Assembly: GCA_039621445.1 (NCBI GenBank)
Contig: CP154954.1
Location: 13,930,387-13,994,386, forward strand
DNA: 64,000 nucleotides
From: Euglena gracilis
Lineage: Eukaryota
Direction of reading: 5' to 3'
Part shown: piece after piece, positions 15,783-44,065 of the stretch
Layout of the letters: every line of letters begins with the position of its first letter
How positions within the stretch are numbered: position 1 is the stretch's first letter
Made by a program: the position numbers and the translations under genes
The notes under the pieces: generated by a model
The model's database searches: none
Told to the model about the DNA's origin: nothing
The model's input: only the letters and a program-made list of their open reading frames with translations

Positions 15783-15845
<63 letters not shown>

Positions 15846-18800
15846 GTGTGCGTGCGTCCGTGCGTGCGTGCGTGCGTGCGCACGTGCGTGCGTGCGCACG
15901 TGCGTGCGTGCGCGCGTGCGTGCGTGCGTGCGTGCGTGTGTGTGTGTGTCTGTCGGTGGGGGGGGTGGGGGGGGTGGGTGTAGTGTGTGCCAGAACCAAG
16001 GACCCTGTCAGTTTCCCGGGCGGGAATCCAACAGGTTCTCAGGCACATGACAATTTCCTCGGGGGGGTTGTCCTGTGTTGTTGGTGTGCAACGTGCTCTG
16101 CTACACACAGACACACAGACACACAACACACATGGCACATAACATATGTGCACACAGGCGTACACACACCTTGCCTGGTGTCATTAGAAGAACTACCTTA
16201 CTTTTCATCTTGTTTGGTTGAAAGTTAATTGGCCAGTAATGGGCGTTAATTTGGGTACTTTTGTGGTCCGGCCCACTGGCAGTTGAAACCAGACTGGGCT
16301 GCAAACCCAGCTGGACTGCACTTTTTTATCCAAAGTTTTGAGGTACACCCCCAAAGCCTCAAAAATGCCATTTTCGGGGGTTTGACCCCGTTTTCCCCCA
16401 ATGTTTTCGGTGCTTTGCACAGTAAATGTTTCGGTTCATCCCGGTTTTGCCAGGCTTACAATAATTATTTTCCCTTGACCCCCCTTGAGGGGGGGGCTGG
16501 CTGGGAGCTGCTGGCCGGATCTGGGAGATGCTGGCTGGCTGAACCCAAGGGTTAGGGTCCCTTCCAGCTTGAGAAATAATGATTTCAGCCCACTGGATGG
16601 AAGAACTTGCTGGCTGGATAGAAGATGCTGGCTGGACCCAGCCAAAGTCGCCAAGTGTAAAACAGGAAAATTGCCTCTCTTTGCTGGGGTGTCTCTTGGC
16701 CCACACTCGCCAAACTGGTCTTACAGCGGGTTAGCCTCCCACACCGCCAATTTGGCCGAAGCCAACATCCTGGGGAGGTATGCATGCCACCCCCCTCCCC
16801 CTGGCTTGTTGCCCAAGCCAGAACTGCCACAGTCAGTCAGTGGGGTGACTCTTTGGCCTCATACTGCCACAGGCCGTTGGAGCTGATTAACCCAAAGTTC
16901 CCCCACCTGGCTTCTGGTGCCAACATGCCGAGCAGTATGTGGTTCTTCTCACCCAGTGAACTCAAGGCAAATGCCATTGAAGGCTCTCCGAACATGTGTA
17001 ACCTTGCCAGGATTTTAGGGAAGCCCTTCGGTATTGAGGTGGGTGATTGGGGGGAGGCCCGACGATCCCCCCCGGGGGATAAGGTGAAGGAAGGGGGTCT
17101 GGACCACCCCACACCAGATGTCGGGAGGGGGGTCCGGACCCCCACCCCCTCCTCAGCAGGTTTCAAAAATTGCGAAATTTTTGTTTCCAGCGCACAGCAC
17201 CGGAAAACGAGCAAAAAAAAAAAAACGCCCCTGTTCCTCACTTTTGAGCATATTGCCCATTTTTTTTGATGGTTTGGTGTTTTCCACATAAATGTTTCAA
17301 ATTTCATAAATTTCAAAAAATGAGCATTTTTGGATTCATTTTCAAAGAAAAATCAGGGGTTCTTTGAACAATCTTGGCCAATTTCCTTTGCCCGTCCTTT
17401 GCCCTTTGCCCGTCCATGAAACCGAAGGTTTTCCAGGCCCATGTGAGTTTCGAGGTAGGAGGGGAGGGGTCCGCCCCCCCCCCCCCCTCAAGGCTTCCCA
17501 TCTTTTCCTGGACAGCCCCCCCCCCTGAGGCTGATTTCTAAGGCAAGGCCAACCCCCCACCCCCGGAGCCATCCTGGTCAGGCACTCCAAAGCACCCAGG
17601 TTCCCCCCGGAGCCATCCTGGTCAGGCACTCCAAAGCACCCAGATTCCACCTCTGGGGGGGGGTACATGGCTAAAATTGCTTTGGGCACCAGTTTTTGGA
17701 TCTGGTTCGCTAATTCTGGCATGATGGTTCGAAGTACCCGGGGGGAGGGGTTCAGCTCGACTGCAGCTGTTCCAAATTTGGCCAGTGGAAACCCCAGTGT
17801 CCCTGGATCCAAGGATTGGAATTTTTTTCCAGTGACTGGCATGAAGTGCTATAAAATTTATTGACCCCAAAACCTGCCAAAATGACCACGTTTGGAGATT
17901 TTCCTATTTTTTTTTGAACAAAATCGGCCAACAAAAACACAGCAAAACCACCTTTTTTTACCTTGGCACGCAGCGCCAGAAGAATTTTTTTCTGGTTGGG
18001 GGGTGACCCCAGACCGCCCTCCCTCCAGGGAAGTGGTGGTCTGCCCCCCCCCCCCCCCGGGAAACTATCATGCCCGAGAACCTGTCAGGGTCCCTCCCGG
18101 GCAGGCACCTACGGCCGACCAGGGCCGACCAGGGCCGACCAGGGCCGACCATGGCCGACCAGGGCCGACTATGGTTTTCAGGACCCCTGTAGGTGGGGGT
18201 TCCGACCAGGGCCGACCAGGGCCGACCAGGGCCGACCAGGGCCGACCAGGGCCGACTTGCATGTGGTTGGCCGACCGAAGGGGAATGGATGAAGGAATTT
18301 GACAGCTTTCCCTCTGGAACAAGCACCTCTGATGATGCTGGGCGATGCAGGGCGATGCTGGGCGATGCTGGGTGATGCTGGATTTTTGGAGACAGAGGTG
18401 GGGTTCCGATGCTGGGCGATGCTTTTTTTTTGGATGGCTGAAGTGGGGTCCATATTTGGGCCTATACTGCTGGGTACACCCTCCCTCCCCCGCAGACCAC
18501 TCCAGCATGCCCTTCATGTCTGCCCATGCCTCTGCCTCTGCTGCCGTGCTGGACCTCTCTGTCCCCCTCCGGGAGGTGTGTGACTCCCCTGGAGCCGAAG
18601 GTATCGTGCCCCTGCTGCATACCTGCGTACAGACTCCACATTGGTGCTTGCTTCGTACCTGAGTCGACGATGTTCCTCCCTGGCTCGTCTGGCCTTCCCT
18701 GAGTGACTCCCTGGAGTGGATGCTTTGGTGGGAGAGGGAGGTTATGGGGGGAATCTTAAGTTGTGGGATAAACGGGCGACTGTAGTTGCGGTTGTAGGCA

Positions 18801-21800
18801 TGTGCATGATCATGTGCATCCGTGGATGCTTGTAGGGCATGTGAATCCGAGAATGCGCATGTGCGCATGTGTAGGGTGCGCATACTGCGCCTTTGGAAGG
18901 ATTGGCATCCAACGAGCCGCGAATTTAATACACAAAGTCGCGAGTTGGATGTCGAGGAAGGTTGGTTGGAGGCCAAGAAGTGGGACCCCCGGGAAGTGTG
19001 ACCCCCAGGTGTGACCTTTGCTGACTAGCCTCTCCTTCAGTGGAGGAAGCTGCGTGGTCGGGAGAAGCACGACTGGCAGTGGTTGCTGCTGCTGGAGAGG
19101 CAGCGGTGGGACCGGCTGGAGGAGCTGCGGGTGCTGGAGGGTGAGGTGGTCGTGTTTGCAGTACCCTTCCAGTGCCCCTGCTGTATTTGTGTGCCTGAAT
19201 TTTGGTCTTCGGTTATAGGGTATTATTGGATGGCTCTAGGGTGATGCAGGGCGATGCAGGGCGATGCAGGGCGATGCGGGGCCCAAAGGGGTGGGTGACC
19301 GAAGGTGCTTGCCAATGGAGGCCTTATGGGGCACTTCCTTTTGATCTTGGCGAGACAATTCAGAAAATCATTGCATCCCTTCACATTTTTTTCTGTGGCG
19401 GATACCCCCACCTATGGCCGACTATTTGCCGACCAGGGCCGACCATGGCCGACCAGGGCCGACCAGGGCCGACCAGGGCCGACCAGGGCCGACCAGAGCA
19501 CCAAAATGGGAAGTGACCATAGGTGCCTGCTCCCGGGAAACTGCCAGGGTCCTTGTTACCAGCCAACTTGTCACGATAGGAAGTTGCCAGGGTCCCCGGC
19601 ACCGGCCAACCTGTCAGGGTCATTTTTTTCATTGATTTCCCCCTGAAATGCCCTACCGGGGGAACTGTCAGGGTCCCGCCCACAAAACTGTGAGGGTCCT
19701 CAGTACCGGCCAACAGGTCATGACAGGAAGTTGTCAGGTGACAGTTTCCCGGGGGGGGGGGATAGGTAGTGCTTTTTCTGGTGTCTGCTGTAAAAGCTAG
19801 CTGGTCTACCCCAGGGTTCGATATAAGGAGGGCGTACATGGTTTAGGTGGGGGGGGTGTCCCCCCCCCCCCCCCCCCCCCTCCTGGCCCGCAGGGGGGGG
19901 GTCCGGACCACCCCCCCCCCCACCTGCAAGGGGGTCCGGACCGACCCTTGGGGGGTTCCCGGGACCCCCCCCCAAAAAAGGGTCAATTTTTTCCTCCGGC
20001 GCTTTGCGCCGAAAATTTTTTGCATTTTTGGCCAATTTTTGCCCCAAAAGTGCCCAAAATGGCACTTTTGGTCGTTTTGGGGGGTCAAAATTTTTCGGTC
20101 ACCCTGACCGCGCCACTGTTTAGGTGGGGGGGGGGGGGGGTGTACGCCCCCCCGCCCCCCCCCCCCCCTGGCCGGCGGGGGGGTCCGAGCCCCCCCCCCC
20201 CCCCCTCCTCTCTTTATATCGAACCCTGGTCTACCCCCTCGGGGTCCTTATGCAACAGCCTTCTGGGCACCCAGCCGGAAGCCCAGAAAAGCCCATTTTT
20301 GGGCATTTTTGACCAGGCAGGCACGACCCCAGGGGGGGTATTGGCTGCCTGCCCAGGCAGCCCGGGGCACCCTGGGGAGGCCGCCCCCCCCCCCCCCCGG
20401 GGCTGTCAAGTTCAGCCTGCCCTCAATAAGGACCATCGCCGGACCTGGTAAGGAGAGTGCTGGAAATTGAACTGAGTCCAAGTCGTCGTCCAGGGGCTGG
20501 CTTCAATCGCTGGCCAAATGAAGGCAAACGATGAAATGCATCCCACGCAGGCCAGCCACCAAACAGCAGGAGTGGAGCACAGGGTTTCCCACTGTGGGCT
20601 GTTCCACCGACGTACCACACACTCATTGTATACCCTATCAATCTAATTACTGTTGCATTTCAGACTTCACTATGTAAGCAAATGTGCGCATGGGCAAGTG
20701 GGTGGGGGGTGCCCATCTTTTCCGGTCCTTAGACGGGGGAGAGTATGCACATAATTTCGTCGCATATGTATCATGAATCCCACAACGTGTAGTTCGCTCC
20801 GCAAAGACCGCAAAGAAAGTGTTCACCCAAGTCAGTTAAGAAACCTGCACTCCAACAAACGTGCTCACCCAGTGTCCAGCATCCTCCTCAACTGCGACCA
20901 ATATGGTGGTGCGGGAGCAATAATCTAAATTATCCAGGAGGGGAAATTGCTTTAACTGGCTGGTGTTACTCACCAAAAAAACAGGTGTATTTTCTTTTGT
21001 AATATGAGTGTACTGCTGAGCTATTATTATTTTTTCATAATGTATATAATTTGGATGACGTCAGTTATTTGAAACAACTCTTCACTTGTAATTTGTGAAT
21101 TTTTTTGTGTGCGCAATTTTGTGTTTCACCGTCCGCAAACAGTTTCAAGGATTTAACTATTGATACGTAACACTCAAAACCGCGCAGAAGGGAGGCAGCC
21201 TGCCCCCAGGATGCTGACAATCATGTTTGCGGACATCGAGGGCTTCTCCACCATCTGTGAGAACGAGTTCCCCGCCGTTCTGGTCTCCGTGTGCACGGAG
21301 TACTTCGAGGCCATGTGCAGTGCCCTGGGTCCCCAATGCCGCCACGGAGCTGCTCGATTTTTTTTTAAAATGGCAATATGCAATAGGCAATATGGGTTGA
21401 AAAAAAAATACCCCCCATTTCCAGGGGTTGGTCAAAGATTATGAAACCACTAAAAAACAATCGCTCACCTCCAGAAAAACCACCCAGTCAGCACCGGGGG
21501 GGGGGTCGTGGGTGAGTGGGTTTTCGAAAAAATTGGTTTTGTGGGTTCAGGCCTGAGAAAAGGTGCCCCCCCCCCCTGGGTCACTAAGTGAATCTATGGT
21601 CACAACCCCCTGGGCCACATTTCTCCTCTACTTTCGGTGCCAACTCATTTTGCGTTCCTTCTGGGAGTTTGGTAACAAATTGTGTGATGCCTTTTTTCCC
21701 GCTCACCTTTCGGAGGCATTCCTTTCCTCTCCGGGCTGGACTCAGCTGTCCAACATCGTAGGACGCAACGGCACCATTGACAAGTTCATTGGTGACTGCA

Positions 21801-24800
21801 TCGGCAGCATTGCAGTGGGTGGTTTTGAAGTTGCGTCTGTTTCAGGGGATCCATCCATTAAATGTTATGTATTTCATGTTTACAGTGATCCCTCAATTTC
21901 CATAATTATCGACATTCATTTTATTCGTTGTCAACAACACTCGTATGCTTCTTTGTACCGGACCATCGATTCACGATCCTGTCGGCCTGCCCTGTGAACA
22001 TGTCACCGCCACGTTCACAGACAAAAATGGCCAGAGGCCAAAGTCACGCCAGGCCGGAAGAAGGGATGAATGGCACGAAGCAAACAGCCACAGTGCAGTG
22101 GCGTTCACTTCCACAGCTACCTACCCCCAGGGAGATTGTCACGCCAAGAACCTGTCAGGGTCCCTGGTCCATGACAGGAATTTGGAGGAAGTTGAGGACC
22201 AAGGGTCCTTGGTCCCGGCAAACTTCAAGGCCCAACCCCGGACATTTTCACGGTCCTGTCAGGTGACAGTTTCCCGAGGGGCATGCCAGATTCCACTGCC
22301 GTGCTGTGCCATGGCGATGTGGAACGCACCGGACCGGCTCCCCAGCCACGAGAGGGACGCCGTGGCGGCGTCGTTGGCGATGCAGGACGCCCAGGGGCTG
22401 TGCCGCGAAGGCAACTCGCGTGCGGGGTGTGGCGGACGGCAGGTGTGCAGTGTGGTGCGCGGTGCACGGTGGTGCGGGGTCTACCCCAGTCACATTGTGG
22501 GCCCCCAGTGTGGCCAGAAGCTGGCCCAGAAACCCATCTCCGGAACAAACTCTCCCCCCCACCCGCCGACCCATTTCTGTTTGCCCGTTTTGCCGGTCCC
22601 TGCCGCTTGCGTCATGGACCTGCATCGGTCGTGGAAGGACCGCGGGCTGCCGGTGCTGAAGTTCCGCGTGGGCATCCACACCGGGGAGTGCCTCGTGGGC
22701 AACTTCGGCCAGGGCCGGTCGCGTGCCTGTCTTCGGTGCCCTCTGTGCCCATTCCCGGTTTGTCAAATCACCCCCATTTCCATCGATGGTTGTATCGTGG
22801 AATGGCATCACCCTTGCTTCCACCCCATGAGCGAGCCTCAGGTGTTCGTGTTCCTCTAATTATGCTCCCCCCGGACCTCCCTAGAGTCAGGCTCCCCCAG
22901 GATTGCAATCTGACAACAGCCTGATTGGCCGGAACGTTGAGACCCTGACACCGAGGACCCGCTGTCGGGGAGGAGTGAAGTGAGCGTTCCTCAAAAACAT
23001 GACAGTTTTGCAGAAACCCGGAGCAGATGCAAGAATCAACCCGTGGACGCAATCACGTGATTGTCCCGAGCTGACAGGATACCACTCTTGCTGCCAATCT
23101 CGGTTTGCATTGGGACTGTTTCCCGCTCGTCTGGCCAACAGCTCCGGCCCTGGGGCCGGCTGCAGCTACCGCGTCAGCTACACCTGCCTGGGCGACGGGG
23201 TGGCCCAGCCCCCTCCTGATTGACCCACTGCTCACCCGCTGTGTGAAGTTGACCTCTGCAACCAAAATAATAGTGGTAAATGGCCAATTTGAATCCATCT
23301 GGCAATCAAGAATTGTCTCCCCCTCCATAAACCATGTAATTGATTCTGGGTCAGAATGAAAAAAAAACCCAAAATGATTATTTGTTGGAGATTTTTGGAG
23401 ATTTTTTTTGTGGCTGTACCCACCCTTTGCCCGACTAAATACCGACCACCCCCCCAGTCGGGGGTTGCAGGTCAGGGGGGTGCGTGACCCTACAGCTCGG
23501 CCCTGGGCGGCGGCCAGCTACGCGTCAGCTACGGGGAGGGGACTGAGCCCCTTTGTAAACAGGTGCATGCTCACCCGCTGTGTATTTGGACGCGTCTCAG
23601 ACCAACAACCATGTGTTCCAACCTCCGCCGACAATGCCGGTAACATAAAAAACGGGCAATGGGCCGGGCCACTCGCATAATGTGTTGGCTTTGGTTGGGG
23701 CCAAAAACACCACGCTTGGGCATGGGGGTGGTGAGGCTTCCACTTGCCCGCTAAATACCGACCTTACCCCCCAGTCACTTAGTCAGGCGGGGGTGTCATT
23801 GACCCTACGGGGATGCGCGGTGCGCGGGCGGGGTGGGCTTTCCGTGTACGCATACCCCAACACACCCCACCCCAACAGTGAACCCCACGGCCGTGATTTG
23901 TGCTTCAGAGTTCTCAATATTGGGTTCCACCTGGATGTAACACTTGTACCATACCCCACCAACCCGACCCCATCTCTGTGGGCACCTTGGTTGGGCAAAA
24001 ACCCGCTAACCGGCCCCCACGCAGCACGCCACCCCCCTCGCCATTAGCCATTTTTTGTGGTGGTGAGGGCCCAAATTTTAAGAGGGTGACACCAGCACGA
24101 AATTTTGGGTCGTTGGGTCCATTTTAAGTGTTTTGACAAAGTGGCGATTTTGAAAACTTATGGCCGTTTTAGTAGGGGTTTTGGAAACACACCCCGCTGG
24201 AACGCCTTGAAATTTTGAAAAAACAGAAAACAGCCGGAGAACACCTGGCCTCCGGAGCCCTGGTTGTTTGGCGATGCTACCGGACCCCCCCTCTGGAGGG
24301 GGGGTGACACGGTGTTGCAGGTGAAGAAGAGGCAACCGCTTAAGCAACCCGCGCATTTTTGAACATCTCAAGAGTCCCGATGTCCAGTGATGGGGGAGGT
24401 GAACACACAGCACTGCCCAAAAGATGCTACAATTTCTGGAAGGGATGTTTTAAGCGGTAAACCGCACAAAACTTGTTCTTGTGAAGGAGAGATGCTGGCC
24501 TTATGGAGGGGACTGGACTGGGAATAAACGTTTTACAAATGAGGTTAGCCGGTTTACCGAGCAAAATCGGGTTTACCGCGTAAAGAAGTGATGGTTCCTC
24601 AGGCGGAAACCCGCGCAGAAGGGTTTCAGAATGAGAACAGTTCGTGTTTGTGGATGACATGTGGAAGCGGGAAGTGGGAACGCGCAGAAACCTCCAGAAG
24701 TCGGCCATCACGTGAAGTTGTTAACCAACAAGTTTGGGGGAGAGGGAGGAGGACTTTGTGGCGTTATTGAACGATCGCAGTGGGCGGTTATCCGCCTACT

Positions 24801-27800
24801 TCGCTTTTGCTTTGCACGGGTTTCCGCGCAGATGTGGTTTGGGCGGAAACCCGCGTGGAGCTTGTTGCTGTCCTGGTGGGTTGTGTTTTGTGATGTTTTG
24901 GTGTCCCGAAGTGTCGGTGTCGGTGGTCGGTGTCGGCGGCACAATGTTTGGAAGTTGGGCGGGACAGGTTGAAAGGGAGCTGTGGCTGCTGCGCCGTGAC
25001 AGCAAGCACCCGAGCACGCGGAAACCCGCCTGGCATTTGAGCAGGAGGTGGACACCCTCCTCTGCAATTCGGACGCAGTAATGTTCCCCCTGGCCAGTGG
25101 TGAAGGGGTGGCTGCAGGGACAGCAGTGGAACGCACGTGTCAGTTGCCAGGCCGGGTGAGCTGCGGTAGAGAAGATGTTTTGTTACTGTCCCGAAAAACG
25201 GCCAAAAAACTGAGGTTGATTTCTCAGGAGGAACAAAAGCACCTCCCAGGGCCCTCCACTTGGAACCCAACGGTGTTGGTGGCCCAAAATCAGGGTTTGG
25301 GGAAGGCCGACGAAGAAGTGATTCAAGATAGGGACGGAGAAACGCCTGTTTCAGCAGCTGGTGGCAGCCATCGAAAAAATTTGGGTGGTTTTGGGAAGGA
25401 GTCCTCCAAGTTCTGAAAAATTCAAGGCCATTGTAATTGTTTTTTGAAAGAGTTTTACAGCATGTTTCCTTTGAAAAGCTGCAGTTTTTGCTGAAATTCA
25501 GACAGAATACCCAAACCACCTCTTTTTTTCTGGCTCTTCCTCCTTCGGGGTCGGCAACATGCAACGGTGGTCTCGACCGTCAGAAGCCGTGTGGGAGGGG
25601 GGGTAAACCACCAGAAGGCGGTCGTTCTCAACCAACGCCGGGTCGATGTTTGACCCGCTGCATTTGGCTTCCATCCATGTAACCACTCTCAACGCAAGTG
25701 TATCCGGTCCTTTTGGAAACCACCTCTGCTCTGAGTGCCCAAGTTTAAGGGCTGCCCATCTCTCCTTGTTTGGTCAAACCCTGCTGGTGCAATCTCCTCT
25801 CCCTGGTTTCCATAAACCTTCACCCCTCAAACTCACCACAACACGCCAGACACCATTCAGTTGCAAACTGCCTGGCAGCCTGGCAACAAAGTCTGTCGTC
25901 CGTGTACTCCGCAAAGATTCACCCCTTTGACTGGTGTCACAAGTAGGGTTGCAAAACTTTGCCAACAAACCGGCAGACTTCATTTCTAGGGTGGCTTCCT
26001 GGCTGGTCTTTTTGGTTTGTGTTGGTTTGCGTGGATTGTGGTGGTGGGTGGTTTGAGGTTTGTTTGGGGCTTTGGAACAAATGCTGTGCTTTTTCTGCCC
26101 ACCCTTAACCCGGCCACACGGATTCCCGCTTACACCCAGTCGCCTTACACTCGCCACGTATACACACACAGAAAACGGATTCCCTCCTACCAATCATCAA
26201 CTGTTTGTGTCATTGTACGTGGTAATCCGCGTACCATTCTTTGTTTTCACTTTTAGGTGGTAATCCGCGTACAAGTGCATTGTGCGCGGATATCCGCCTA
26301 AACACTTAACTCTGTTGTCTGTCACCTCTTCTTTCGTTTCACGCGGTTTTCCGCGCACACTTGTATTATCCATTTGTTTCTCAGATACTGTTATTAACAT
26401 AAACCAACACACAGCCCCCATGACACACCCATTCAAAGTCAGTGTTTTTCAACTCATTTCAAACAGTTCTAGTACACTCCCAAATCACACAATTCACACG
26501 CAATCGTAAATCGGTTAAGCGGAATACCGCGCAAAACCATTTTCATAAAATTTTGGCTCAAAGCCGCCACACACCCCTCTCAGCCCAAATCTTTGTGCCC
26601 TTTTAGGGGGGTTTCAAAACAGCCAAAAAACGCCCAAAAAACGCAAAAATCGGTTGGGCAATTCGCGCCGCCTAAGTTAGTCACTGGCCGACCCCCCCCC
26701 CCTGGGTGGGTGGCTGGTTTTTCAGAGTAACTGACTGGTTTTGGCCTGGACACCCTCCCCCCCCCGGGGGGGGGTTCGCAAAAAAACCACTAAAGTGACC
26801 CGGCGCCGAAGGTGCCGGACAAAGTTTTGGGCTTTTTTTCCCATGTTTTTTGGTCAAACTTCCTTTGGATTCTAGAGTGGCCGACCCCCCCCCCCCCCAG
26901 GGGGTGGTGACTGACTGGTTTCCCGGAAAAAGTGACTGGCTGGTTTTTCGAAGAGTGGAATGACCCCCCGGGGATCGGTAAAACATTGCATGTTCCTTAC
27001 CTGAGGAAGGGCGCTGCCTCCCAACCTGTCCGCTCGCCTGGAGGCACTCAATAAAAAGTTTGGGGCCAGGGTGCTTCCAGCTGGAGAGCCTCTTCAAAGA
27101 CTTGTCCCATATTGTACCGTCCCTCTCCTGGCCAGACAGCAGGAAATGCACTTGGAAAAACAACCCAATGAAAGATTTGTTTCTGCACAAGATAATTTCC
27201 TGTCAATCGCACATTGTTGCATTATGGGTATCCCAGGGCAGTGCTCATGTGAATATGTGAATGAAAGGAGGCTGGTTATGGGAGCAGGCTTTTGCTTAGT
27301 CGTGTGCCCAGCCCACGTGGGGGGGTGCTAGGGGCAGGCACCCCATCCGACCCCCCCCCCGGGGGGGTCGAGTTTTTGGGGGGTGCCTGCCCATAGCAGG
27401 CACCCCCTCCGACCCCGGCGCCGAAGGGCCCGGAAAATGCCATTTTCAATGAAAAATTTATGGGCCCCCTGGACCCCCCGGAGGGTGTGCCTGCTAGGGG
27501 CAGGCACCATATAGCCCCCCTCCCCCCCCCCCCGGTCGGCCTGAATGGGAGCATAGCCAGTGTCATTTTGCGCTTTACCGCTTACCGCAGAGCCACTACT
27601 ACCCCCCCCCCCCCTATGTCCAATGGCCACCCCCCGGTCAGAGGACACCTTTTCGGAGGTTTGACCAAATTTTTGGTCCCGGCGTGAAGCGCCGGGACCA
27701 AAAATTTTGCCCAAAAATTGGCCAAAGGTTACCGGTCATTGGACATAGGGGGGGGGTAGGGGCTCTGCGTTACCCCCTTTTTGGGACACAGTCTTGTAAG

Positions 27801-30800
27801 TTGTCCGAAACTTTGTGTGGCGACATATGTGGAGAGTATCCCCGGCGGGGAATCACACACCAAAATCCATTTTTCACCAGTCTCCATGTATTTTTTTTTG
27901 GAAAGGACTTCATTATTGTCATCTTTTTTTTTTAAGAAGAAAACGCCCTGCCGAGGACGTTCATCTGCGTCTCCCACTCCACGTACGAGGCGTGCCAGCA
28001 CGACTTCCATTTCCGGAGGCTGGCGAAGGTCACGGTGCCTGGCAAGGCCACCCAGGGACCAGTGGGACTTTTTTCTTCAGCAGACAACGATGTATATTTC
28101 GTTTTGTAGTCAATTTTATCTTGGACTCTTATATTCCAGAAAGGGGTACTTTTTTTTAAGAAGATTTGACTCCGGGGGGGGGGGTCCAGCCAGCCAGCAG
28201 CTTTTTTCCAGCCTTCTCCCGCATCGACGAGTTTTTTCCATCTTTTATTATATTTTTCAGCCTTCCTTCGGGTGGCTGGATGGGCTTTCAGAGATGCAAA
28301 ACCGGCCAAAAATGGGCGAAAGTGGGTCAGAAAAGGGCTGGGGCGTATTTGGGGTTTAAAACTGACTGGTTTTTCAAAAAAAGTGGCTGACTGGCTTTTG
28401 GAAGTGTGGAAGTAACCCCCTCCCCCCTCCCCTGTTGGTCGATAAAATTCTAAACCACACAAAATTTGGATGGTGAGGGAGGGGGAGTTGGTGCAGTTGG
28501 TTTTCTGGGTTGTGCTACAAAGGCGTTCGTTTGCTCAGCCCTGCCAGAGAGGTACTTCCGGTGTACGAGGTGCTGTGCGAGGCGGGATGCGTCGAGACAC
28601 GGACCCCCAAGGCCGCAGACCTTCCTGGAACAGTCGGCATCGACGTGCAGAGGGAGCCTGTGAAGCCGGCCAATCAGTGTCGAGTCTGGCTTGTGGTCCC
28701 CCAATTTGAACTCCGGACTATTCTCTCAACCTGCATGGGGTCCAACGTTTTTGTTCATCCAGTGCACATTCCCAAGTCAGATCAGTGACCAACCTCTGAA
28801 GTTGCAATGCCGATGTTGCAGAGTGTGGGTTCAGGGTGCCCACCCCTCCCCCTCCCGGGAAACTGTCGCAGAAGGTGGGAGTGGCCAACCAGTCATGAGA
28901 GGAAGTTTCCAGGGTCCTGGCACTGGCCGACCTGTCGAGTTAACAGCTTCCTCGGGGAGGGGGGTGTTAGGCAGGTGCTTATTCTGCTGCTGTTCTCTGG
29001 TTTCGTTTCACAAACTGTTTTTTTTTGTTTGATGGAATGCGGCTTAATGCGTGCGATCGGCGGACACTCATTGCCTCCGCCCAAGGAGCGGCGGTACTCC
29101 CCGGCGCAGCGGGTCAGCGTGGCGGACGGCCTGCTGTTGCGCGGCCCCACCAAGACTGGGAACAAACCGGCGGACCAGTCCCTGAATGGTGTCCCCCCTT
29201 CAAGCCTGCCCATGCGAAGCACGGAGGGTGAATGGTGTGGCTTTCCCCACTGAATCTGCTGCATTTTGAAGTTTTTTGGGGGGTGAGAAATGATTCATTA
29301 ATCCCACCGTCATCGAAGGGAGATACAAACAGAAAAGTCGCGTGGTTGGCAATGATACTTTTCAGGTTTTTCAAAAGATAATCATTTCTTCGATGCAAAA
29401 ATCCGAGTTATGGCATTCCCCTGTTATCATTTTAGGAGTATTAAAGGAGGTGGTTGTATGGCAAGTGTGTACATATGTAAGTCTGTGTGGAAATTATGCA
29501 AATACATGGCAGCCTCGGTCTATTTGCCCCCCCCCCCCGGGGGGGGCAAGCAGAGTGATCAATGGGGGGGGGGTCGTGTGGAGGGACCCGTGTCCGACCT
29601 TCGGGGAAATTTGGGTCTAGGGTTAGGTTTCCAACCAGATACCCAGAGGATGTACATTTTTAGGAATTTAGGCAGACGTCAGGCCGCATGTGGGAGCCAG
29701 TGGACCGAATTCAGGGGAATTCTTTTTGGTAAAACATGTATTCAAAAATCTTCTGAAAATGGGACCTGATTGCCGGCCTAACTTCGTCCTAAAATGGACC
29801 AGTTTTCGGGGCAATCCCAACCCTAACCCTATGCCAACAATTTAGGGGGAATCCTCCTTGATTCCACTGCCGGTTTCCCTGAAACCGCGTGTTTCCCAGC
29901 GCCGTGGGGCCAAAACAAAAACAGAAATTTGGATCTGGGTCCCCCATACCAGGGGGGGGGGGACTCAAACAGGAAAAATTGCTGTGGAAAAATTCAGAAC
30001 AAATTTTTGTTTAGGATTATCCCCACAAATTTTGCGAAATATAAATTTTCGGCACTCCGTCAATTCAAAATAAAAGAATTTTTTGCCTTATTTTTTGGAG
30101 TTTTTTTTTGCAATTTTTTTTTTGGAGTTGTGACAACCTCGAATTTTGGTGTGATTTATCTTGTGTTTCCCTGAAAAGTTGGTTCACAAGATTTTTTTCG
30201 TTCAGAATCTTCCCTGGGGGCCCGCTTTTCAGCGAGCAATTAGTAAATAATAAATAAGCGAGCGTCCAATAATTTTTCCCGTCGGCATTTGTTCCTGTTA
30301 TTTTCCCCCCGGTATACCCCCCCTGATCATTCTAATTTCCCCCCCAGGTGAGAAAGTAGAGTGAGGCTGCCAGATATCCGTATACATATACACACATACA
30401 TGCATATACAGAATAACATATGCATACATAAACCCCACCCCCCACTTATACCCCCCCCCCCCTTATAACCCCCCCCCCCCCCTTCTAACCCCCCCCCCCC
30501 ACTTATAAACCCCCCCCCCCTCGGGCCGACCAGCCAAACCGGATCGATCCTATAACCCCCCCCCCCTGGGGAAGAAAAATGGAAACCGCCGGGGACGATT
30601 TTTTTTTTCAGCCGCAAACCACTGAAAAACTGATTTTTTGGCATTTTTTTGAGACCGACCATCATCAAAATGCCATTTTTGACCAAGTTTGCCAAACATT
30701 GCCAATTTTAGGGGGTTTCGAGGGCATTTTTTGGGGTCGGATTTTGACCAACAATTCCGTATCCTATAAAACCCTCCCACCTATAAACCCCCCCCTCGGG

Positions 30801-31657
30801 CCGACCAACTAAACCGGATCCTATAAACCCCGGGCAGTTTATAAGTGGGGGGAGGGGTTTACACATGCATCAGGGGGGGGGAAATGCGCTGCGCAGTTTT
30901 GCGCATTTTTGTCAATTTTTAAAAAAATGCGCATTTTTGTGCATTTTTTTGCGCATTTTTCCCATTTTCCCACTTTTTTTTTTACACTTTTTGGAGGCAT
31001 TTTGTCCATATTGTCCAAATTGTCAAAAACAAACTTGACATTGGTGTTATTCAACACCGTTCTTCAACACCAATCAAATCACATACTCACCGAATTTTGC
31101 CCACGTTCAAGTAACCCATTTCTATAACCAACGAACCCATTTCCGCACTTTTTTTTCCACCCAAGGGACCTGCCTCAAGAAAAAAAACCCTTGGGTGATG
31201 AGGTGTGGGTACTCATCCAATGATGATGAGGACACTAGGGTTTTCAGAGACCCCACATCGAATCCTACTCCCTTTGTCACAAGTAAGGGGCAACCATGGC
31301 TGACATTGTTGGTTATGGTGAACAGAGAGTGACGCCTTGCTCGTGCATTTTTTTTTTATATACCAAAAATGCCTTTATTTCAGCTGTTTTTGATGACTTT
31401 GGTTTAATTTTGGGCTTATTGTTGGAAATTTTTCTGAGTCCTTTTTCTCTTATGAATGTACAAACTCAGCGCATTTTTGCGCATTTTTTTTTTCCGGGGG
31501 CCGTCCAGAGCATCCCCCCCCCTGCATACATGCACGCATACATACACACAAACATGCACACATGCATGCATACATGCGTACATTCGTATATGCATACAAC
31601 AGACAGACAGACAGGCAGACAGATAGACAAACAGACAGACAGGCAGGCAGGCAGAAC

Positions 31658-31689
<32 letters not shown>

Positions 31690-33475
31690 TACACGCATAC
31701 GTACATGTAGCATATTGCACTCACAGACACATTCAAAAACAAGCACACACATTGCCATGCATTTGGATAATATGTTACGCACCATCATACACTTTTATTT
31801 TCCCTTGTGGGAAGCATGCCTATTTTTTTTTTGACAGGGCAATTCTGCTCGAAATATTTATTTCCTCGCGTAACAAGTTTTTTTTTTAAAAGCGTCATGG
31901 CACGAACTCGCGAAACGTTGCGCACGATTTCGGTAATTTCATCTCTGAGCCATGTGCTTTCCTTCGCTGGGCTTGAGCAACCAACACCAGGTAGGAGTTG
32001 TCCCCGGCCTGCCCCCGGCCAGGTGACCTATCACTGGACACTTGTGGACCGCGCGGTGCTCCTGCAGTCAGCCGAGGGGTACGAGGAGGCGTATGCCGCC
32101 ATGGTGGTTGGCGGCCAGTCTGCTGTGCCGTGCCATGCCGTGCTGTGCCGGCTGGTTTTAATGTGTGCTCTCGCCCAGGTGTCGGATGTTGTGTGTTTCG
32201 GAACTGGATGAACTGGGCCAAATTGTGCCATTCCGATGCCTGATGGAATGCTCTGATGAGATGTTCAGTTGAGACAGCACCCAGGCGACCTAACTTGCAC
32301 TCAATCTGTTTTGCATGCCATTGCGCATGCGCTCAGCATTCACTGTCCTGCAAACCCACCCTTTTGGTTCTTTAGCCCTGTGGCAACTGTTCCTTGTTTT
32401 GTCCAGTTTTAAATCCAATTCCGAAATTCCTTGAAATAGGACAAAACACCCGTGCTCAGTCCCACGTTTTTGTACCCCTCAATATATTTCTGTCCCTCCT
32501 GTGCAAGCCAGGTGAAACTTCTGCCCTTTGTGTTGCTTTGTGAAGTGCTGTGGCATGTATAGGGTTCCTGCCAAGTCATCCAGGGGGTGGACTCTACATC
32601 TACACTGTTCCCCCCCTTGTCTAAGCCCCCCCTCCCCGGTGATGACCCATCTTTTTAAAGGTCATCTTCTCGCGGAGGCTTTTTTTGTGTGCTTTTTTAG
32701 AAAATTTTCTCGAGAGTTTGAAAATTATTGAAACCTCTGAAGCCTGATATGGTGAGACATTGTTGATTTTTGCATCCAAATGCCTGTGAGTGCAACAGTG
32801 GACCTCCAAAATAAGGGTAACCCCCCCCCTAATAGAAGCACGGGGCCGCTACAAGCGCAGGGTCCAAATAAAAGCGCACCCCCCCCCACCGCCGAAGGCG
32901 GCGGTCTGCTACAAGCGCACCCCCCATTTTGATAGGATTTCTAAAGGAAATCAACAAAAATCGCGCAGGTACGGCCCAAATAGAAGCGCACCCGTGCTTC
33001 AATTGGGGGGGGGGGTTAATTTTTCCTTTTTGGTGTGAAGCGCCGGATTTTTTTTTGCAAGTCAAAATTTCCCCCTTGTCCAAGCACCAGCCCCCTGATG
33101 CTTACCAATGTTTTCCAGTGCTTAGACAAGGGGGGGGGTATGCTCCCGATTCTCCGGCACTCCGTGTTTTCAGCTTCTCCCAACTCTGAAATAGCCCGGC
33201 TTGCACGTCTCATTTCCAAGGCACGGCGGTCTGCCGGGGACCAACAACGGGCGCGGCAGCTGCTGGCGGCCAACCCGCTGCTGGACCCGCCGGACAAGAC
33301 GTGGGCCGCCCTGGCTGCCCAGCCAGGGCTTAATGGGAATCCCCGCAACCCTGTGGGTGGTGGGTGGGGGGGGTCGACCCCCCCACCAGGCCTTCCCGCA
33401 CAGCCCTGCGCCCAGCTGGAGCACGCGGAGGCCGGCCGGCCATGGGACGGCGTGTTCTACTTCAAAGAGAAGTGA
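837..33475 (+). CDS. Spliced gene (5' end lies upstream of the window): receptor-type class III adenylyl cyclase, TM-extracellular region-TM-HAMP-cyclase; about 27+ exons, listed separately
   Basis: Exons join in frame to give LTIMFADIEGFS...TEYFEAMCSNIVGRNGTIDKFIGDCIMAMWNAP...FRVGIHTGECLVGNFGCSYRVSYTCLGDGVNLSARLEALNKKFGT...WDGVFYFKEK*. There are two hydrophobic helices (837-887 and 14827-14892) and a HAMP-like segment. Exon structure at 6760-8206 and 29150-32016 is unresolved. Confidence 0.93.
2238..2339 (+). CDS. Adenylyl cyclase exon
   Basis: VSQAIERFDARLTEGEKEMTEVVLMVQGSGVLGY; downstream 12-bp stem CTGGGCACCTGC/GCAGGTGTCCGG (with G-U pairs). Confidence 0.72.
2592..2627 (+). CDS. Adenylyl cyclase micro-exon (probable)
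   Basis: DLRPSQFDIPRL between two paired intron ends; CCTGCAC (2630) pairs with GTGCAGG (5914). Confidence 0.55.
3875..4737. mobile_element. TA-flanked MITE (AAATAA-ACCCC family) with nested element 4028-4512
   Basis: C-run/G-run TIRs; homologous to 44066-45041. Confidence 0.85.
5926..6015 (+). CDS. Adenylyl cyclase exon
   Basis: PFTGQTFTMMQGHRFFSQVSVIGSYLDPTE; 5' end +/-3 nt; 3' intron 6016-6620 is N3-CAG...CTG-N5|A. Confidence 0.75.
6621..6752 (+). CDS. Adenylyl cyclase exon
   Basis: SFFIPTFWVTWVAFYMDFLNNSFGTRTLYSTPLVMAVNEKSSTL; 3' end uncertain. Confidence 0.75.
7289..7341 (+). CDS. Adenylyl cyclase exon (tentative)
   Basis: GDLPGNITQVNQITAKP joins in frame to the 8207 exon via GT(7342)..AG(8206); 5' end uncertain. 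Confidence 0.4.
8207..8289 (+). CDS. Adenylyl cyclase exon
   Basis: LAKWVDGWLTTMAWNRFTGQVELVLRQ; 3' intron 8290-9502 has stem CAGGGGC/GTCCCTG. Confidence 0.8.
9503..9603 (+). CDS. Adenylyl cyclase exon
   Basis: (K)IAAQNGTGIQLTINIGAATISDELRSQLKGFPD; both junctions in frame under the N3/N5 rule. Confidence 0.82.
9977..10023 (+). CDS. Adenylyl cyclase exon
   Basis: DRLVLFFRQPHGYMI(A); flanking stems CAAGC/GCTTG and CGGCG/CGCCG. Confidence 0.82.
11511..11618 (+). CDS. Adenylyl cyclase exon
   Basis: ASHGKYFSHSDVDARYINPLLHPPNISAYSLWTCL(Q); high GC3, in frame at both ends. Confidence 0.85.
11622..11949. mobile_element. MITE with 8-bp TSD that forms nonconventional intron 11619-11954 (introner-like)
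   Basis: Imperfect TIR CAAGGCTTCACTTA / TAAGTGATTCCATG; flanks CTGCAGAG / CTGTAGAG; related sequence at about 21490-21598 and about 61330-61455. Confidence 0.85.
11955..12007 (+). CDS. Adenylyl cyclase exon
   Basis: SNDALIAFACQQLYGKY(Q); 3' stem CAGGGGAAG/CTTCCTCTG. Confidence 0.85.
12266..12417. mobile_element. hAT-like MITE
   Basis: CAGGGATTT...AAATCCCCTG; perfect TSD TCTCCACT. Confidence 0.88.
12622..12707 (+). CDS. Adenylyl cyclase exon
   Basis: SWTAIPEMNQELVLAGQRYWVATGYSSG; 3' stem CGGGCCGG/CCGGCCCG. Confidence 0.85.
13875..14279. mobile_element. TA-flanked MITE
   Basis: TAAAACCCCCCAATTAGAAGCCCCC / GGGGGCTTTTAATTGGGGGGTTTTA. Confidence 0.85.
14321..14430 (+). CDS. Adenylyl cyclase exon
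   Basis: TLQCTVLMLKCRASVMGSIDASNAYVDQSVSDKKGV(T); in frame with neighbours. Confidence 0.85.
14826..14921 (+). CDS. Adenylyl cyclase exon (TM2)
   Basis: FVILGVVSAVAVLLPLSVGLWLATRLYMLAR(G); 13-bp 3' stem CAGGGCCTGTCCC/GGGGCGGGCCCTG. Confidence 0.87.
15022..15389. mobile_element. hAT-like MITE (CAGGGCGGTC family)
   Basis: TIR CAGGGCGGTC/GACCGCCCTG; TSD GGCAGCCC/GGCAGGCC; relatives at 38148-38369, about 33733-34340 and about 43314-43866. Confidence 0.88.
15476..15628 (+). CDS. Adenylyl cyclase exon (HAMP and linker)
   Basis: MDRIAQLQFATTAPPPTVFRELHRFQASFVQMERGLQAFGKFVPHGVVKV(L): HAMP-like E-L..F..M..GL pattern followed by FGKFVP. Confidence 0.9.
15784..15949. repeat. (TG)n/(TGCG)n microsatellite
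   Basis: Directly visible. Confidence 0.97.
18042..19764. mobile_element. C-run GGGAAACTGTCA-family element containing nested insertions
   Basis: TIR CCCCCCGGGAAACT(A/G)TCA / TGACAGTTTCCCGGGGGG; uninterrupted copy at about 34345-34512; fragments near 8820, 16000, 22130, 28850 and 38450. Confidence 0.8.
18102..19529. mobile_element. hAT-like non-autonomous element with (CCGACCAGGG)n subterminal arrays
   Basis: TIR CAGGCACCTA(C/T)GG; perfect TSD CTCCCGGG; empty site visible in the copy at about 34385-34420. Confidence 0.9.
19812..20228. mobile_element. hAT-like MITE
   Basis: TIR CAGGGTTCGATATAA; perfect TSD GTCTACCC. Confidence 0.92.
20505..20544 (+). CDS. Adenylyl cyclase exon
   Basis: IAGQMKANDEMHP; both junctions N3/N5 and in frame. 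Confidence 0.8.
21208..21321 (+). CDS. Adenylyl cyclase exon (catalytic, first metal-binding Asp)
   Basis: RMLTIMFADIEGFSTICENEFPAVLVSVCTEYFEAMCS. Confidence 0.93.
21752..21802 (+). CDS. Adenylyl cyclase exon (catalytic, Lys and second Asp)
   Basis: NIVGRNGTIDKFIGDCI. Confidence 0.93.
22311..22388 (+). CDS. Adenylyl cyclase exon (catalytic)
   Basis: MAMWNAPDRLPSHERDAVAASLAMQD. Confidence 0.92.
22608..22706 (+). CDS. Adenylyl cyclase exon (catalytic)
   Basis: CVMDLHRSWKDRGLPVLKFRVGIHTGECLVGNF. Confidence 0.93.
23158..23202 (+). CDS. Adenylyl cyclase exon (catalytic)
   Basis: GCSYRVSYTCLGDGV; upstream intron has a perfect 10-bp stem CCAGGGCCGG/CCGGCCCTGG. Confidence 0.92.
27023..27063 (+). 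CDS. Adenylyl cyclase exon (catalytic Asn/Arg)
   Basis: NLSARLEALNKKF(G). Confidence 0.92.
27285..27543. mobile_element. hAT-like MITE (GGCAC/GTGCC family)
   Basis: CAGGC...GCCTG; TSD TATGGGAG/AATGGGAG; related to 35171-35453. Confidence 0.8.
27600..27758. mobile_element. TA-flanked MITE (TATGTCCAA family)
   Basis: TIR TA-Cn-TATGTCCAATG; copies at 47403-47733 and 48548-48899, partial copy near 41986. Confidence 0.88.
27956..28049 (+). CDS. Adenylyl cyclase exon
   Basis: TFICVSHSTYEACQHDFHFRRLAKVTVPGKA. Confidence 0.9.
28549..28667 (+). CDS. Adenylyl cyclase exon
   Basis: EVLPVYEVLCEAGCVETRTPKAADLPGTVGIDVQREPVK(P); 3' stem CAATcAGTGTC/GACACTcATTG. Confidence 0.85.
29079..29150 (+). CDS. 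Adenylyl cyclase exon
   Basis: PKERRYSPAQRVSVADGLLLRGP; 3' end uncertain. Confidence 0.68.
30429..30861. mobile_element. TA-flanked MITE (TATAAACCCC family)
   Basis: TAAACCCCACCCCCACTTATA / TATAAGTGGGGGGAGGGGTTTA. Confidence 0.85.
31598..31690. repeat. (ACAG)n microsatellite
   Basis: Directly visible. Confidence 0.93.
32017..32112 (+). CDS. Adenylyl cyclase exon
   Basis: GQVTYHWTLVDRAVLLQSAEGYEEAYAAMVVG; 14-bp 3' stem CAGTCTGCTGTGCC/GGCACGGCGGTCTG. Confidence 0.82.
32818..33018. mobile_element. TA-flanked MITE nested in a TTGTCTAAG-family element (about 32607-33140)
   Basis: The empty site AAGGGTAATTTT in the homologous copy at 38-49 shows the TA duplication; further host copies at 1-210 and about 39822-40215. 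Confidence 0.88.
33239..33320 (+). CDS. Adenylyl cyclase exon
   Basis: DQQRARQLLAANPLLDPPDKTWAALAA(Q). Confidence 0.85.
33324..33408. mobile_element. 85-bp MITE derivative with 8-bp TSD that forms intron 33321-33413 (introner-like)
   Basis: [17 protein letters not shown]; flanks TGCCCAGC / CGCCCAGC; similar to an intergenic element starting at 42986. Confidence 0.82.
33414..33475 (+). CDS. Adenylyl cyclase last exon
   Basis: LEHAEAGRPWDGVFYFKEK*, with TGA at 33473-33475. Confidence 0.87.
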
Positions 33476-35170: not shown

Positions 35171-35453
35171 CAGGCTTTTTTTTTTAGTTGGGTGCCTACT
35201 CCACGGGGGGTGGGTGCTAGGGGCAGGCACCCCATAGCACCCCTGCCGACCCCCCCGGGGGGGGGGGAGAGTTTTGTGGGTGGGTTGGACAGGCACCCCT
35301 GTCCGGGAAACGATCCCGTTTTCTTTACCCTGTTGGCAAGGACCCAGCCGACCCTGGGTACCCCGGGCTGCCCCCCCCCCCCCGCCGGTGTGCCTGCTAT
35401 GGGCAGGCACCCCATAGCACCCCCCCGGTCCCGGTCGGTAAAAAAAAAGCCTG
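35171..35453. mobile_element. hAT-like MITE
   Basis: TIR CAGGCTTTTTTTTTA; TSD CGGAGAAC/CGGGGAAC. Confidence 0.87.
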
Positions 35454-41300: not shown

Positions 41301-44065
41301 TCAGATAGAATCACCAATGCGATGCACAGCTGGAAAGTTAATCAGCTGTGCACTGAAGAATATTTCAGCCACTTCTCCCATTGCAATGCCTTCAAGGCAA
41401 GGGGTTGGAACAGGGTCAGATAGGAAGGGCAAAAAAATTCAAAGTGTGGAAATTTCTGAACAGGTTCAGAGTTGGATTATATTAGGGTAAGGAAAAGTTT
41501 ATTATTTGATGGGGCAGAGGTTGGAATATAAATTATAACACCCTAGCTGAATTTTGGAAACCAAGCAGGTCCAGCGCAGCCAGCAGGAGCTGACCGGAAG
41601 AAAAGATGCTGGCTGGCTGGACCCCCTCCACCAGAGGTTGGTTCTCTCCTGCCCAAGAAATCTCTTGTGGAACATATCACCTTCAACCTCAGCAAACATT
41701 TCATGTACGCAATGAGAGACGAGGCTGCCAGTGTTCACAATGTGCAGCACCAGCAAAGGCCAAAAGTGCCGACTGCAGCCCTGACCTCCTCGCAATTCCT
41801 GTCGAGCGGTGAACACGTCCCACTCCTCAATTTCCATTGTATTCTTCCGTTGTGCTCCATTGTGGGAGGGGAAATCTGCTGCAAGTTTTACGTCTGCATT
41901 TATTACCGTTTAGCATTTTTAACGGTTTAATTTTTTTTGTATTTTCTGATGTTTGGTCATATCCATGATCAGAACTCTTTTCAGTTACCCCCCTATGTCC
42001 AACGACAACCCCCCCCCGGTCAGAGGACACCTTTTCGGAGGTTTTTTTTGTAGGTGCGTGAAAACCGGAGGTTTGCCAGCCCTGAAAGGCTTTTCTTCCG
42101 CCCTTGTCCTCTACCCAGCAGCCCATCGTCCATTAAAATGTTCCCTCTGGGGAGTTTTGTGCATTACGAGCGCTCCACCGGGGAGATAGTGCTTGCGGTT
42201 GTTGAAGGAGCTTCACCACACTCCCAACATTCCGCCATGACATTTTCCGGTGTTTGCTAGGTTGTAGATGGAGTGAAGATGGTTGATGGAATGCAGGGAT
42301 TGTCGACTGGGTATCTTTGTTTTTTTTTGTGAAATCCCGCGCCGAAAAAATTCTATTTTTAGCATTTTTCGCGATTTTTCGGCCATTTTTTGTGGGTCCC
42401 CCGGACCCCCCCCCCCGGGGGCCCCCCCCAGGGGGTGGGTGGGTGGGGGGGGGACCCCCCCCCCCCCCCCCCGGTCTTAAAAAAACCCCTGACCCCCAGG
42501 CAGAAAAGGCACTGAGAGCCAGAAAAGGGTCATTTTCTAGGGAACAGAAGAGCTAGGACCCATAACAGATCCCCCAGAGAACAAGGCACCTGCCCCCCCC
42601 CTTCGGGATTGTGAAAAAGGAGCCTGTCCATCACCACCTTTTTTGCGCGTAGTTTGTCGCACCCCTGTCATTTCTATTGTCACGTCCACAAATTAGATTA
42701 AGTTTTAGGTTTCTAAAAAAACCACATGAAAGTTGGAGAGGGGAGGAATGCACGACAATGCGCAAAAGAAAAAGGAAAAAGGAATGCAGCTCAATCACCG
42801 AGAGGAAGAAGTGCCATTGAATTTAAAAACTGAATTTTTGATTAGGAAACAAAGCAACCCCAACCTGTCTCGCAAAATACCTGAGAATTTACTCCAGATT
42901 TGATTGAAATATACCCACAGGAAGTTTTCGATGACAAGTCAGCCGGCACAGCCTAAGTGTAAACTTCCTGGGGGGGGGTGTACTCCAGGGCTGTACCGGA
43001 ATCCCCAAATCCCCATGGGTGGCGGGCAGGGGGCGTGCGGCGCCCCACCCACCACCCCTTCCTGTGTTTCCAGGAAGGGGTGGTTGGCTTTTTAGCTGGA
43101 AAAAATTCCTTCGGAGCCGAAGGCATTTTTCCTTGCACGGTGTCATGGTGGGGGGTTGCCACCCCCACCAGGCCTACCCATTCTGTCTGGATGGGGGGGG
43201 TGGATGGGAAGGTATGCAATGGACGAGTGCCCCCTGGCCGCTTGGCCCCCTCCTTTCAAGCAAACTTGCCCCCCCTCGAAGTTGGCCTTTGGCCTTTTGC
43301 GTATGACCGCCATAAGGGACGGGATTTTTTTTTAGTTAAGGACCGCCCCTTAAGGACCGCCCCCCCCCCCCAATACACAGAAACCCGAAAAATTGGACCC
43401 GAAATTTTTTTCCGGCGCCTTCGGCCACCAACTTTTTTTTGACCCATTTTGGGACCCATATGAGAGGTCTCCCCAAAAACCCCTCAAAACCCCATTTTTT
43501 CACACTTTCCAAAAATTCAACATTTTCTCAAAAATTTGGTTTTGAGAGTTTTTTGAAGCAAAAAAAGCCATTGAAAATCCAAAAATTTTCCAAGAGAAAA
43601 AATGTCAGTAAAATTTGAATGTTCCAAAATTTGGTCCTTTTTTTTGACCTGCATTTTTTTGACCGCCCTCCTAAAAACTAACAATTTTCAACCCTAACAT
43701 TTTGAGTTTTTTTGGGAAAAATGTGGTTTTCCATCAAAAAATTGTGTATTTTGGGTTCATTTTTCAAAATCATTTTCAAAATTTTCCCCGGCCAAAATCC
43801 CCTTTTCCTTATTTTTCGGTTGAAGTGTATGGGGACAGGATTTTTTTTTGCTTAAGGACCGCCCTGGCAACCACACAAGGTCCTCACAGCGCTGGAATCA
43901 CACCAGAGTTGCTCACCAGCCGGGGGAGCAACACAAGAGCACTGGTGCAAGGGGTCCACTCACCACACAAACTGGTCCAGAAGCGAAGTTACCGCGGCCA
44001 TAAACAGACAAGAAGCCTCAGTGCAACTAAGGGGGAGGTGTGGATGGTCAAGCACAAGAATCAAG

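Follow-up and report, generated by a model that had tools for sequence, protein, structure and literature searches.

The stretch of Euglena gracilis DNA analysed here comprises 64,000 nucleotides (nt) of contig CP154954.1 (assembly GCA_039621445.1, positions 13,930,387 to 13,994,386, forward strand) and is referred to below as the window, numbered from its first letter. It carries a gene for a receptor-type adenylate/guanylate cyclase whose last coding exon is interrupted by 93 nt. Nonconventional introns are the majority of Euglena introns, and the 93-nt insert resembles one of them in its borders and a MITE, a miniature transposable element with inverted repeats, in its body.

The sequence-only reading of this DNA had placed a small gene here, starting with an ATG at 33140. 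This model has been abandoned: the 33140 ATG falls within an intron, RNA depth climbs in 33211-33320 from about 0 in 33101-33210, and the ATG is not a gene start. The stretch forms part of the last exon of a far larger gene. Word-indexed searches for homologues of the small open reading frame (ORF) at 33140, restricted to near length, returned no relatives, and a Pfam scan of 10 long ORFs of the window, the small one included, gave no family above threshold. An exhaustive HMMER search (E up to 0.001) recovered three homologous proteins and a search for longer proteins one more, namely P0003-P0006, which are two E. gracilis EukProt transcripts, one E. longa sequence and one Logan protein. The adenylate/guanylate cyclase domain PF00211 was detected in P0004 from E. 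longa (E 1.9e-23) and is assigned by precomputed annotation to P0006, an E. gracilis transcript of 798 amino acids. By tblastn, P0006 aligns with the + strand between 2235 and 33472 in at least 26 exon pieces, with 47-93% identity per piece, and leaves a gap of 31 amino acids at the position of the insert. All four homologues read ...Q|LEH...PWDGVF...EK-stop and have zero residues at the site of the 31 codons. Judged by this homology, the 93-nt insert sits in the last coding exon of a 31-kb euglenid receptor-type adenylate cyclase gene.

Sequence reading and a repeat finder give the same order of parts: TGCCCAGC (33316-33323), an 85-bp element CAGGGCT...AGCCCTG (33324-33408) and CGCCCAGC (33409-33416). 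According to the repeat finder, the terminal inverted repeat of the element is perfect over 7 bp and matches at 12 of 16 positions when extended, and the 8-bp direct repeats flanking the element are identical at seven positions. The element and one repeat copy add up to 93 nt, which lie in frame as 31 codons with 0 stops, and without them ...AALAAQ joins LEHAEAGRPWDGV... directly. The anatomy proposed by the sequence-only reading is upheld on these points, since it had described an 85-bp element together with one copy of an 8-bp duplication divided between its two sides, at coordinates that agree with ours, a 7/8 match with the mismatch in the intronic half, and a stop-free insert divisible by three that leaves the frame open. 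Its predicted excision product, ...AALAAQ-LEHAEAGRPWDGV, restores the conserved tail, and the insert is missing in four of four homologues. The element folds stably as DNA (-27.3 kcal/mol, z -3.61), and the 7-bp terminal stem CAGGGCU/AGCCCUG is present in both the minimum free energy and the centroid structure of the RNA (-67.4 kcal/mol, z -2.95), a stability reached by 1 of 200 shuffled sequences.

Knock-in mutagenesis in E. gracilis by Nomura et al. 2025 defined the code 5'-N3CDG...CH'GN5-6|R for nonconventional introns (PMC12501133). Synthetic 50-bp sequences with the features of the code were spliced in E. gracilis, and pairing beside the motifs was needed (PMC12501133). Because of the flanking repeat, the 93-nt stretch can be cut at nine equally good positions. 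None of the nine has GT/GC-AG borders, and the earlier label of an introner-like case, taken in its usual spliceosomal sense, is therefore rejected. Only one of the nine positions, 33321-33413, fits N3-CDG..CH'G-N5|R and reads AGC-CAG...CTG-CGCCC|A: exactly 3 nt (AGC) precede the CAG at 33324-33326, and the CTG at 33406-33408 is followed by the 5-nt spacer CGCCC and by a purine, the A at 33414. Between them, the 3-nt and the 5-nt spacer make up the 8-bp duplication. By the code, the 93-nt stretch is assigned to the euglenid nonconventional intron class, which the sequence-only reading had not named.

To place the other introns of the gene, we optimised its 25 intron boundaries against P0006 with no motif used. 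The coded position was contained in 12 of these 25 motif-blind boundary sets (10 with N5 and two with N6) and GT/GC-AG in none of the 25; among decoys the coded pair appeared in 156 of 20,000 random sets, corresponding to 0.2 of 25 expected. Intron 24 is a 13th coded intron when the boundaries are placed with P0004 as reference, and the motif-blind optimum for intron 32113-33238 lies 6 nt away from its coded placement. The flanks of the other 24 introns match at 0-6 of 8 positions, compared with 7 of 8 at the target, which is also the shortest intron of the gene. Several introns of the gene share CAGGG...CCCTG ends with decayed flanks, and these we call the older ones.

The element has relatives in the window. 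The sequence-only reading had proposed a match running from 42986 to 43178. The match itself was recovered as a significant alignment by blastn (42985-43062 against 33323-33396, 73% over 78 columns, E 2.7e-7) and by nhmmer (E 2.3e-5 for the 42986 copy against the element), with a gapped global score of 62.3 compared with maxima of 30.9 in 300 shuffles and 43.0 in 586 random window segments. It is weaker than that reading implied, with an identity of only about 70%, and the part that reaches about 43178 resembles another incomplete copy and not the continuation of a single long parent. Mean column identity is 69% in the three-way alignment of the element and its relatives. Within 3 kb we found no intact or matching 3' end and no flanking duplication for the 42986 copy. 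What is present are two partial relatives of about 70% identity without intact ends, which does not support the view of the 85 bp as a 193-bp element shortened by internal deletion. We nevertheless take the family link between 33324-33408 and 42986 to be real, judging from these alignments. An initial blastn-short search with the element gave mostly G-run matches. A metagenome scan for its 5' end returned at least 119 loci, none of which extends past the 16 specified bases; the best local score was 24, and the 119 loci examined all look like chance matches.

Elements of the same design are frequent in the window. We scanned its whole length for CAG..CTG inverted termini (at least 7/8 complementary) bordered by an 8-bp direct repeat with at most one mismatch. 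This strict scan yielded nine structures, six with perfect repeats and three with one mismatch, compared with 0 in the reversed sequence and 0-2 (mean 0.4) in 20 block shuffles. In none of the nine could the flanking repeat be extended to 9 or 10 bp. Relaxed scans added 12266-12417 with a perfect repeat, and 27335-27493 and 58658-59572 with 7 exact positions. The element at 38148-38369, for example, shows a perfect CTGAGTGC duplication and the ends CAGGGCGGTCC/GGACTGCCCTG. Among all these elements, 33324-33408 is the only one that splits coding sequence; five are nested in introns and the rest lie downstream. The intron-nested elements are free copies and not exon-splitting introns themselves. 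Among the joints listed, we found no RNA joint for the two downstream elements that fall within the very weakly expressed read-mapped stretch. When inverted ends were sought without bias as exact 7-mers, the output was dominated by tandem repeats at 15.8, 56 and 62.5-63.6 kb, and the in-silico removal of the nine elements did not discriminate by long frames, the G/C-rich DNA being open in many frames. The suggestion of the sequence-only reading that several families are involved agrees with these data, as the window contains several families of elements whose ends are of this kind. The case that it had noted at 11.6 kb (about 11614-11958) is an intron of the same cyclase gene, bordered by direct repeats of 11 nt that differ at one position (CTG[C/T]AGAGCAA); its inner inverted repeats are TCACTTA/TAAGTGA and not of the CAGG type, and it has eight equally good cut positions.

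Sequencing runs provided evidence of the empty site. The DNA run X1 (contigs of about 1.78 Gb in total, single-copy word depth 120-131) carries the locus at >99% identity in the unique flanks. A run search listed no RNA run for the stretch; the two raw RNA runs used, X21 and X24, come from two studies and were chosen by species label only, and run X15 was assumed to be RNA. The listing covered 15 of 434 joints and 24 of 1,857 loose ends. The form without the 93 nt is represented by 11 raw RNA reads (six in X21, five in X24), four X15 contigs and three X1 DNA contigs, the last with depths (179.4 and 98.9) of about single copy (~125). The DNA of the species therefore includes copies that lack the insert and have the 8-bp target once, and the insertion is polymorphic. 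An empty site of this kind classically proves an insertion, or else a precise loss. The last exon is present in about four copies in X1 (depth 518 vs ~125), and the word depth of the bin containing the element is 664,342, about 5,000 times single copy, of which the G/C hairpin core, with its G-run and C-run, probably contributes most. RNA over the exons is in + sense (X24 first mates 0 vs 5-12). Most reads lie only partly on the stretch (530/548 in X21 and 432/456 in X24), the majority coming from repeats elsewhere. Two A/G differences between gene copies, at 33442 and 33466, occur in both DNA and RNA runs and are potential markers of filled and empty copies. Four repeat regions (32771-32990, 33981-34090, 34311-34530 and 35191-35300) reach summed word depths of 0.9-3.5 million in X1 compared with ~125, and RNA reads that map there continue into dissimilar sequence.

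Taken together, these data make it probable that a MITE inserted into the cyclase exon and is handled as a nonconventional intron. In this scenario, an 85-bp non-autonomous DNA transposon with CAGG...CCTG ends would have inserted into the last coding exon, and a transposase of the 8-bp type would have made the duplication. Pairing of CAGGGCU with AGCCCUG in the RNA would then bring both borders to a nonconventional, non-spliceosomal machinery, which would make one cut 3 nt upstream of the CAG and the other 5 nt downstream of the CUG, ahead of a purine. Given that 3 + 5 = 8, the element and one duplication copy would be removed together and the original codons would return, so that excision would restore the reading frame that existed before the insertion. 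For the reaction itself, an RNase III-type cut followed by a ligase, or a tRNA-splicing-like pathway, has been proposed for nonconventional introns (PMC12621601), and circular products of such introns are reported in a review (PMC11282704); among the 15 of 434 joints listed here, there was no back-joint indicating circular RNA. We infer that this filled copy is spliced. The locus looks like a nonconventional intron soon after its birth, which supports the hypothesis of a MITE origin. The superfamily may be hAT-like, a candidate assignment for which duplication length and end motif are the only basis.

Several observations speak against this interpretation. The form without the 93 nt is also found in DNA, so that the RNA joints may stem from insert-free copies and are no proof that the filled copy is spliced. 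By the code, the CGCCCAGC joint cannot come from the filled copy, for which the TGCCCAGC form only is predicted. Sense RNA depth over the intron bin (12.4 in X24 and 9.8 in X21) is no lower than at the exons and would fit retention, and the RNA status of X15 is only a guess. Furthermore, the relative of the 85-bp element in the window, at 42986, is only about 70% identical and its ends are not intact, and the hAT-like assignment lacks support from a transposase, since none was hit when the 10 long ORFs were scanned against Pfam. Some of these points would be accounted for by an exonised insertion, that is, an in-frame element in one copy of a multi-copy cyclase gene that is kept in the mRNA and either adds 31 G/P-rich residues or marks a decaying paralogue, all joined reads coming from insert-free copies. 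An insert that is divisible by three and stop-free, the joined form in DNA at roughly single-copy depth, the approximately four exon copies in X1 (518 vs ~125) and an intron-bin RNA depth not below that of the exons are all compatible with it. The depth argument is weak, however, because more than 90% of the mapped reads come from other repeat copies and the intron bin is thus no measure of retention. The stretch also shows all the tested features of the code, which are enough for synthetic sequences to be spliced in E. gracilis (PMC12501133), about half of the gene's own introns follow this code, and the insert breaks a tail conserved in four of four homologues. We therefore regard exonisation as unlikely, although it has to be taken seriously.

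Another possibility is that the intron is old and was recently and precisely lost from some copies, the insert-free DNA representing cDNA-mediated intron loss or retrocopies and nothing at the locus being young. Since nonconventional splicing takes out the element together with one copy of the repeat, reverse transcription of the spliced mRNA would produce precisely the empty form that the DNA shows, and the DNA contigs have only 55 nt of flank on their shorter side, which leaves the neighbouring introns out of view. The insert-free state of all four homologues is uninformative here because homologous transcripts are mRNA. Against an old intron stand the duplication itself (7/8, vs 0-6 of 8 at the other 24 introns of the gene), the fact that the target is the shortest intron of the gene, and the existence of two different empty forms, one with T and one with C, which render this explanation improbable. 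It is even less probable that the 8-nt repeat is the scar of a double-strand break repaired with a captured, hairpin-forming filler rather than the product of a transposase, as proposed for the strain-specific gapC intron of E. agilis, a nonconventional intron of recent gain whose direct repeats are 8 nt long and for which Milanowski et al. 2016 suggested repair (PMC4770533). The window contains about ten further elements that share these CAGG..CCTG ends and whose repeats measure exactly 8 bp, in no case 9 or 10, and such fixed ends and fixed length argue for a transposase and not for break repair; many of these elements lie in non-coding contexts, and the depth at which the element's sequence recurs exceeds single copy by a factor of thousands. 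Finally, G/C-rich coding sequence has many short repeats, and an inverted and a direct repeat could in principle meet by chance, an explanation practically refuted by the nine structures observed (0 in the reversed sequence, mean 0.4 in 20 shuffles), by the existence of an empty-site form and by homologues that lack exactly these 31 codons. The features on which the analysis is based are listed in Table 1.

Table 1. Positions in the window of the cyclase gene, its 93-nt insert, related elements and read joints (a dot means that no strand applies)
Feature	Position	Strand	Basis or remark
Receptor-type adenylate/guanylate cyclase gene, at least 26 exon pieces	2235..33475	+	tblastn of P0006 and P0004
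Preceding intron of nonconventional type, 1126 nt, GGC-CAG...CTG-CCGGG|G	32113..33238	+	Best coded boundary with P0004 as reference; RNA depth
Coding piece before the 93-nt intron (...DQQRARQLLAANPLLDPPDKTWAALAAQ)	33239..33320	+	Homology to P0003-P0006; + sense RNA
Left 8-bp target-site duplication copy, TGCCCAGC	33316..33323	.	First 5 nt exonic, last 3 nt intronic
Predicted 93-nt nonconventional intron, AGC-CAG...CTG-CGCCC, next exon base A	33321..33413	+	Sole fit to the code among nine positions
85-bp MITE-like element with internal G/C-rich hairpin	33324..33408	.	Repeat finder, DNA fold, word depth
5' terminal inverted repeat, CAGGGCT	33324..33330	.	Repeat finder, fold
3' terminal inverted repeat, AGCCCTG	33402..33408	.	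Repeat finder, fold
Right duplication copy, CGCCCAGC	33409..33416	.	First 5 nt intronic, last 3 exonic; the mismatch is the first, intronic base
Last coding piece (LEHAEAGRPWDGVFYFKEK) and stop codon	33414..33475	+	Open frame, homology
Joint reading CGCCCAGC	33315>33409		X21 3 reads, X24 3 reads; X15 2 contigs (65.6); X1 2 DNA contigs (179.4)
Joint reading TGCCCAGC	33316>33410		X21 3 reads, X24 2 reads; X15 2 contigs (141.1); X1 1 DNA contig (98.9)
Related copy, about 70% identity, same 5' end (CAGGGCT..GGAATCCCC)	42986..43073	+	blastn, nhmmer, alignment
Second partial relative (hairpin and CACCAGGCCT)	43140..43190	+	86.7% over 30 nt, E 1.4e-4
CAGG...CCTG elements inside other cyclase introns	12266-12417, 15022-15389, 18102-19529, 19812-20228, 27335-27493		8-bp flanking duplications (one with 7 exact)
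CAGG...CCTG elements downstream of the gene	34001-34300, 35171-35453, 38148-38369, 44560-44822, 52458-52605, 58658-59572		Same design

Other features were detected downstream of the cyclase gene. A tRNA-Val(AAC) of 85-86 nt lies at 55683-55768 on the + strand (30.6 bits vs an Rfam threshold of 29); it contains CAGGGCT at 55708 and possibly holds an insertion or an intron. An open frame of 537 codons at 50263-51876 (+) consists of two RGG/DRY-rich pieces that look coding, separated by an open stretch that looks non-coding, and is probably another gene with in-frame nonconventional introns. At 56029-57572, within an island of 28% G+C, 1.1 kb of (TATAG)n is followed by a 321-nt T-rich run. No match to a spliced-leader motif was found in the window.

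Earlier papers already describe nonconventional introns with their inverted ends and short direct repeats, and also a possible origin from MITEs (PMC3935182, PMC4770533, PMC11282704, PMC12501133), and the 93-nt intron is an unusually clean case of an already known intron class. In the literature the origin of these introns is called unclear and a MITE origin "proposed" or "plausible" (PMC3935182, the discussion of PMC12501133, PMC12621601). We found no paper tying a nonconventional intron to a dispersed family with free copies, and none equating the N3 and N5 spacers with an 8-bp duplication, although supplements may contain tables of relevance. What the locus offers is an intron of the nonconventional class that is visibly a transposon insertion, with intact ends, a near-intact 8-bp duplication and an empty-site form in DNA of this species; further elements that share its ends and the length of its duplication are found free in non-coding DNA. 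The locus also suggests a simple explanation of the odd 3-nt/5-nt spacer rule, as the two spacers together would remove one duplication copy. We tentatively extend this to a general proposal, which we hold to be quite possible but somewhat short of an even chance: the fixed spacers of the code would be the halves of an 8-bp duplication, and nonconventional splicing would be the exact reversal, at the RNA level, of insertion by one transposon superfamily with CAGG...CCTG ends. Euglena has several hundred thousand nonconventional introns, and on this view most of them would go back to such insertions, the duplication decaying in its intronic halves only, and the present intron would be a fresh instance whose empty allele is still in the population. 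Stated in this form, the hypothesis becomes testable genome-wide on existing Euglena assemblies.

Among known transposons, the element resembles Mar of Drosophila, a hAT MITE that is non-coding, occurs in high copy number and combines 8-bp duplications with a short terminal inverted repeat, CAG(G/A)GGTAGGC, that starts with CAGG (PMC3517528); unlike Mar, the element described here is assigned by its ends and duplication only and is a candidate hAT. The two Merlin families of E. gracilis share with it the host genus and the 8-bp duplication (PMC8101967), whereas Merlin terminal inverted repeats begin with GG in all families described there and the elements of the window begin with CAGG. As in the introners and MITE-derived introns of Micromonas, Aureococcus, dinoflagellates and Fritillaria (PMC11282704), a transposon with terminal inverted repeats and a duplication would become an intron on insertion, the duplication would supply parts of the borders and excision would restore the exon. 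Introners, however, are removed by the spliceosome at GT/AG-type sites that they carry or co-opt (PMC11282704), and the 93-nt intron has none in its nine positions and follows the structure-based rule of euglenids. Intron 4 of E. agilis gapC is similar in being a recent gain that is missing in other strains or copies and has eight-nucleotide repeats at its junctions; unlike the present case, it was ascribed to double-strand-break repair and tied to no repeat family in the text of that source (PMC4770533). Border structure relates the insert to the euglenid nonconventional introns (PMC12501133), with which it shares the lack of GT-AG, the 3-nt spacer before CAG, the 5-nt spacer after CTG and the following purine, the paired bases after CAG and before CTG, the "slidable" borders due to short direct repeats, and a euglenid host gene with many such introns. 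It differs from them in that the intron is known here from sequence, the body appears to be a member of a dispersed repeat, and a near-intact 8-bp duplication makes up both spacers.

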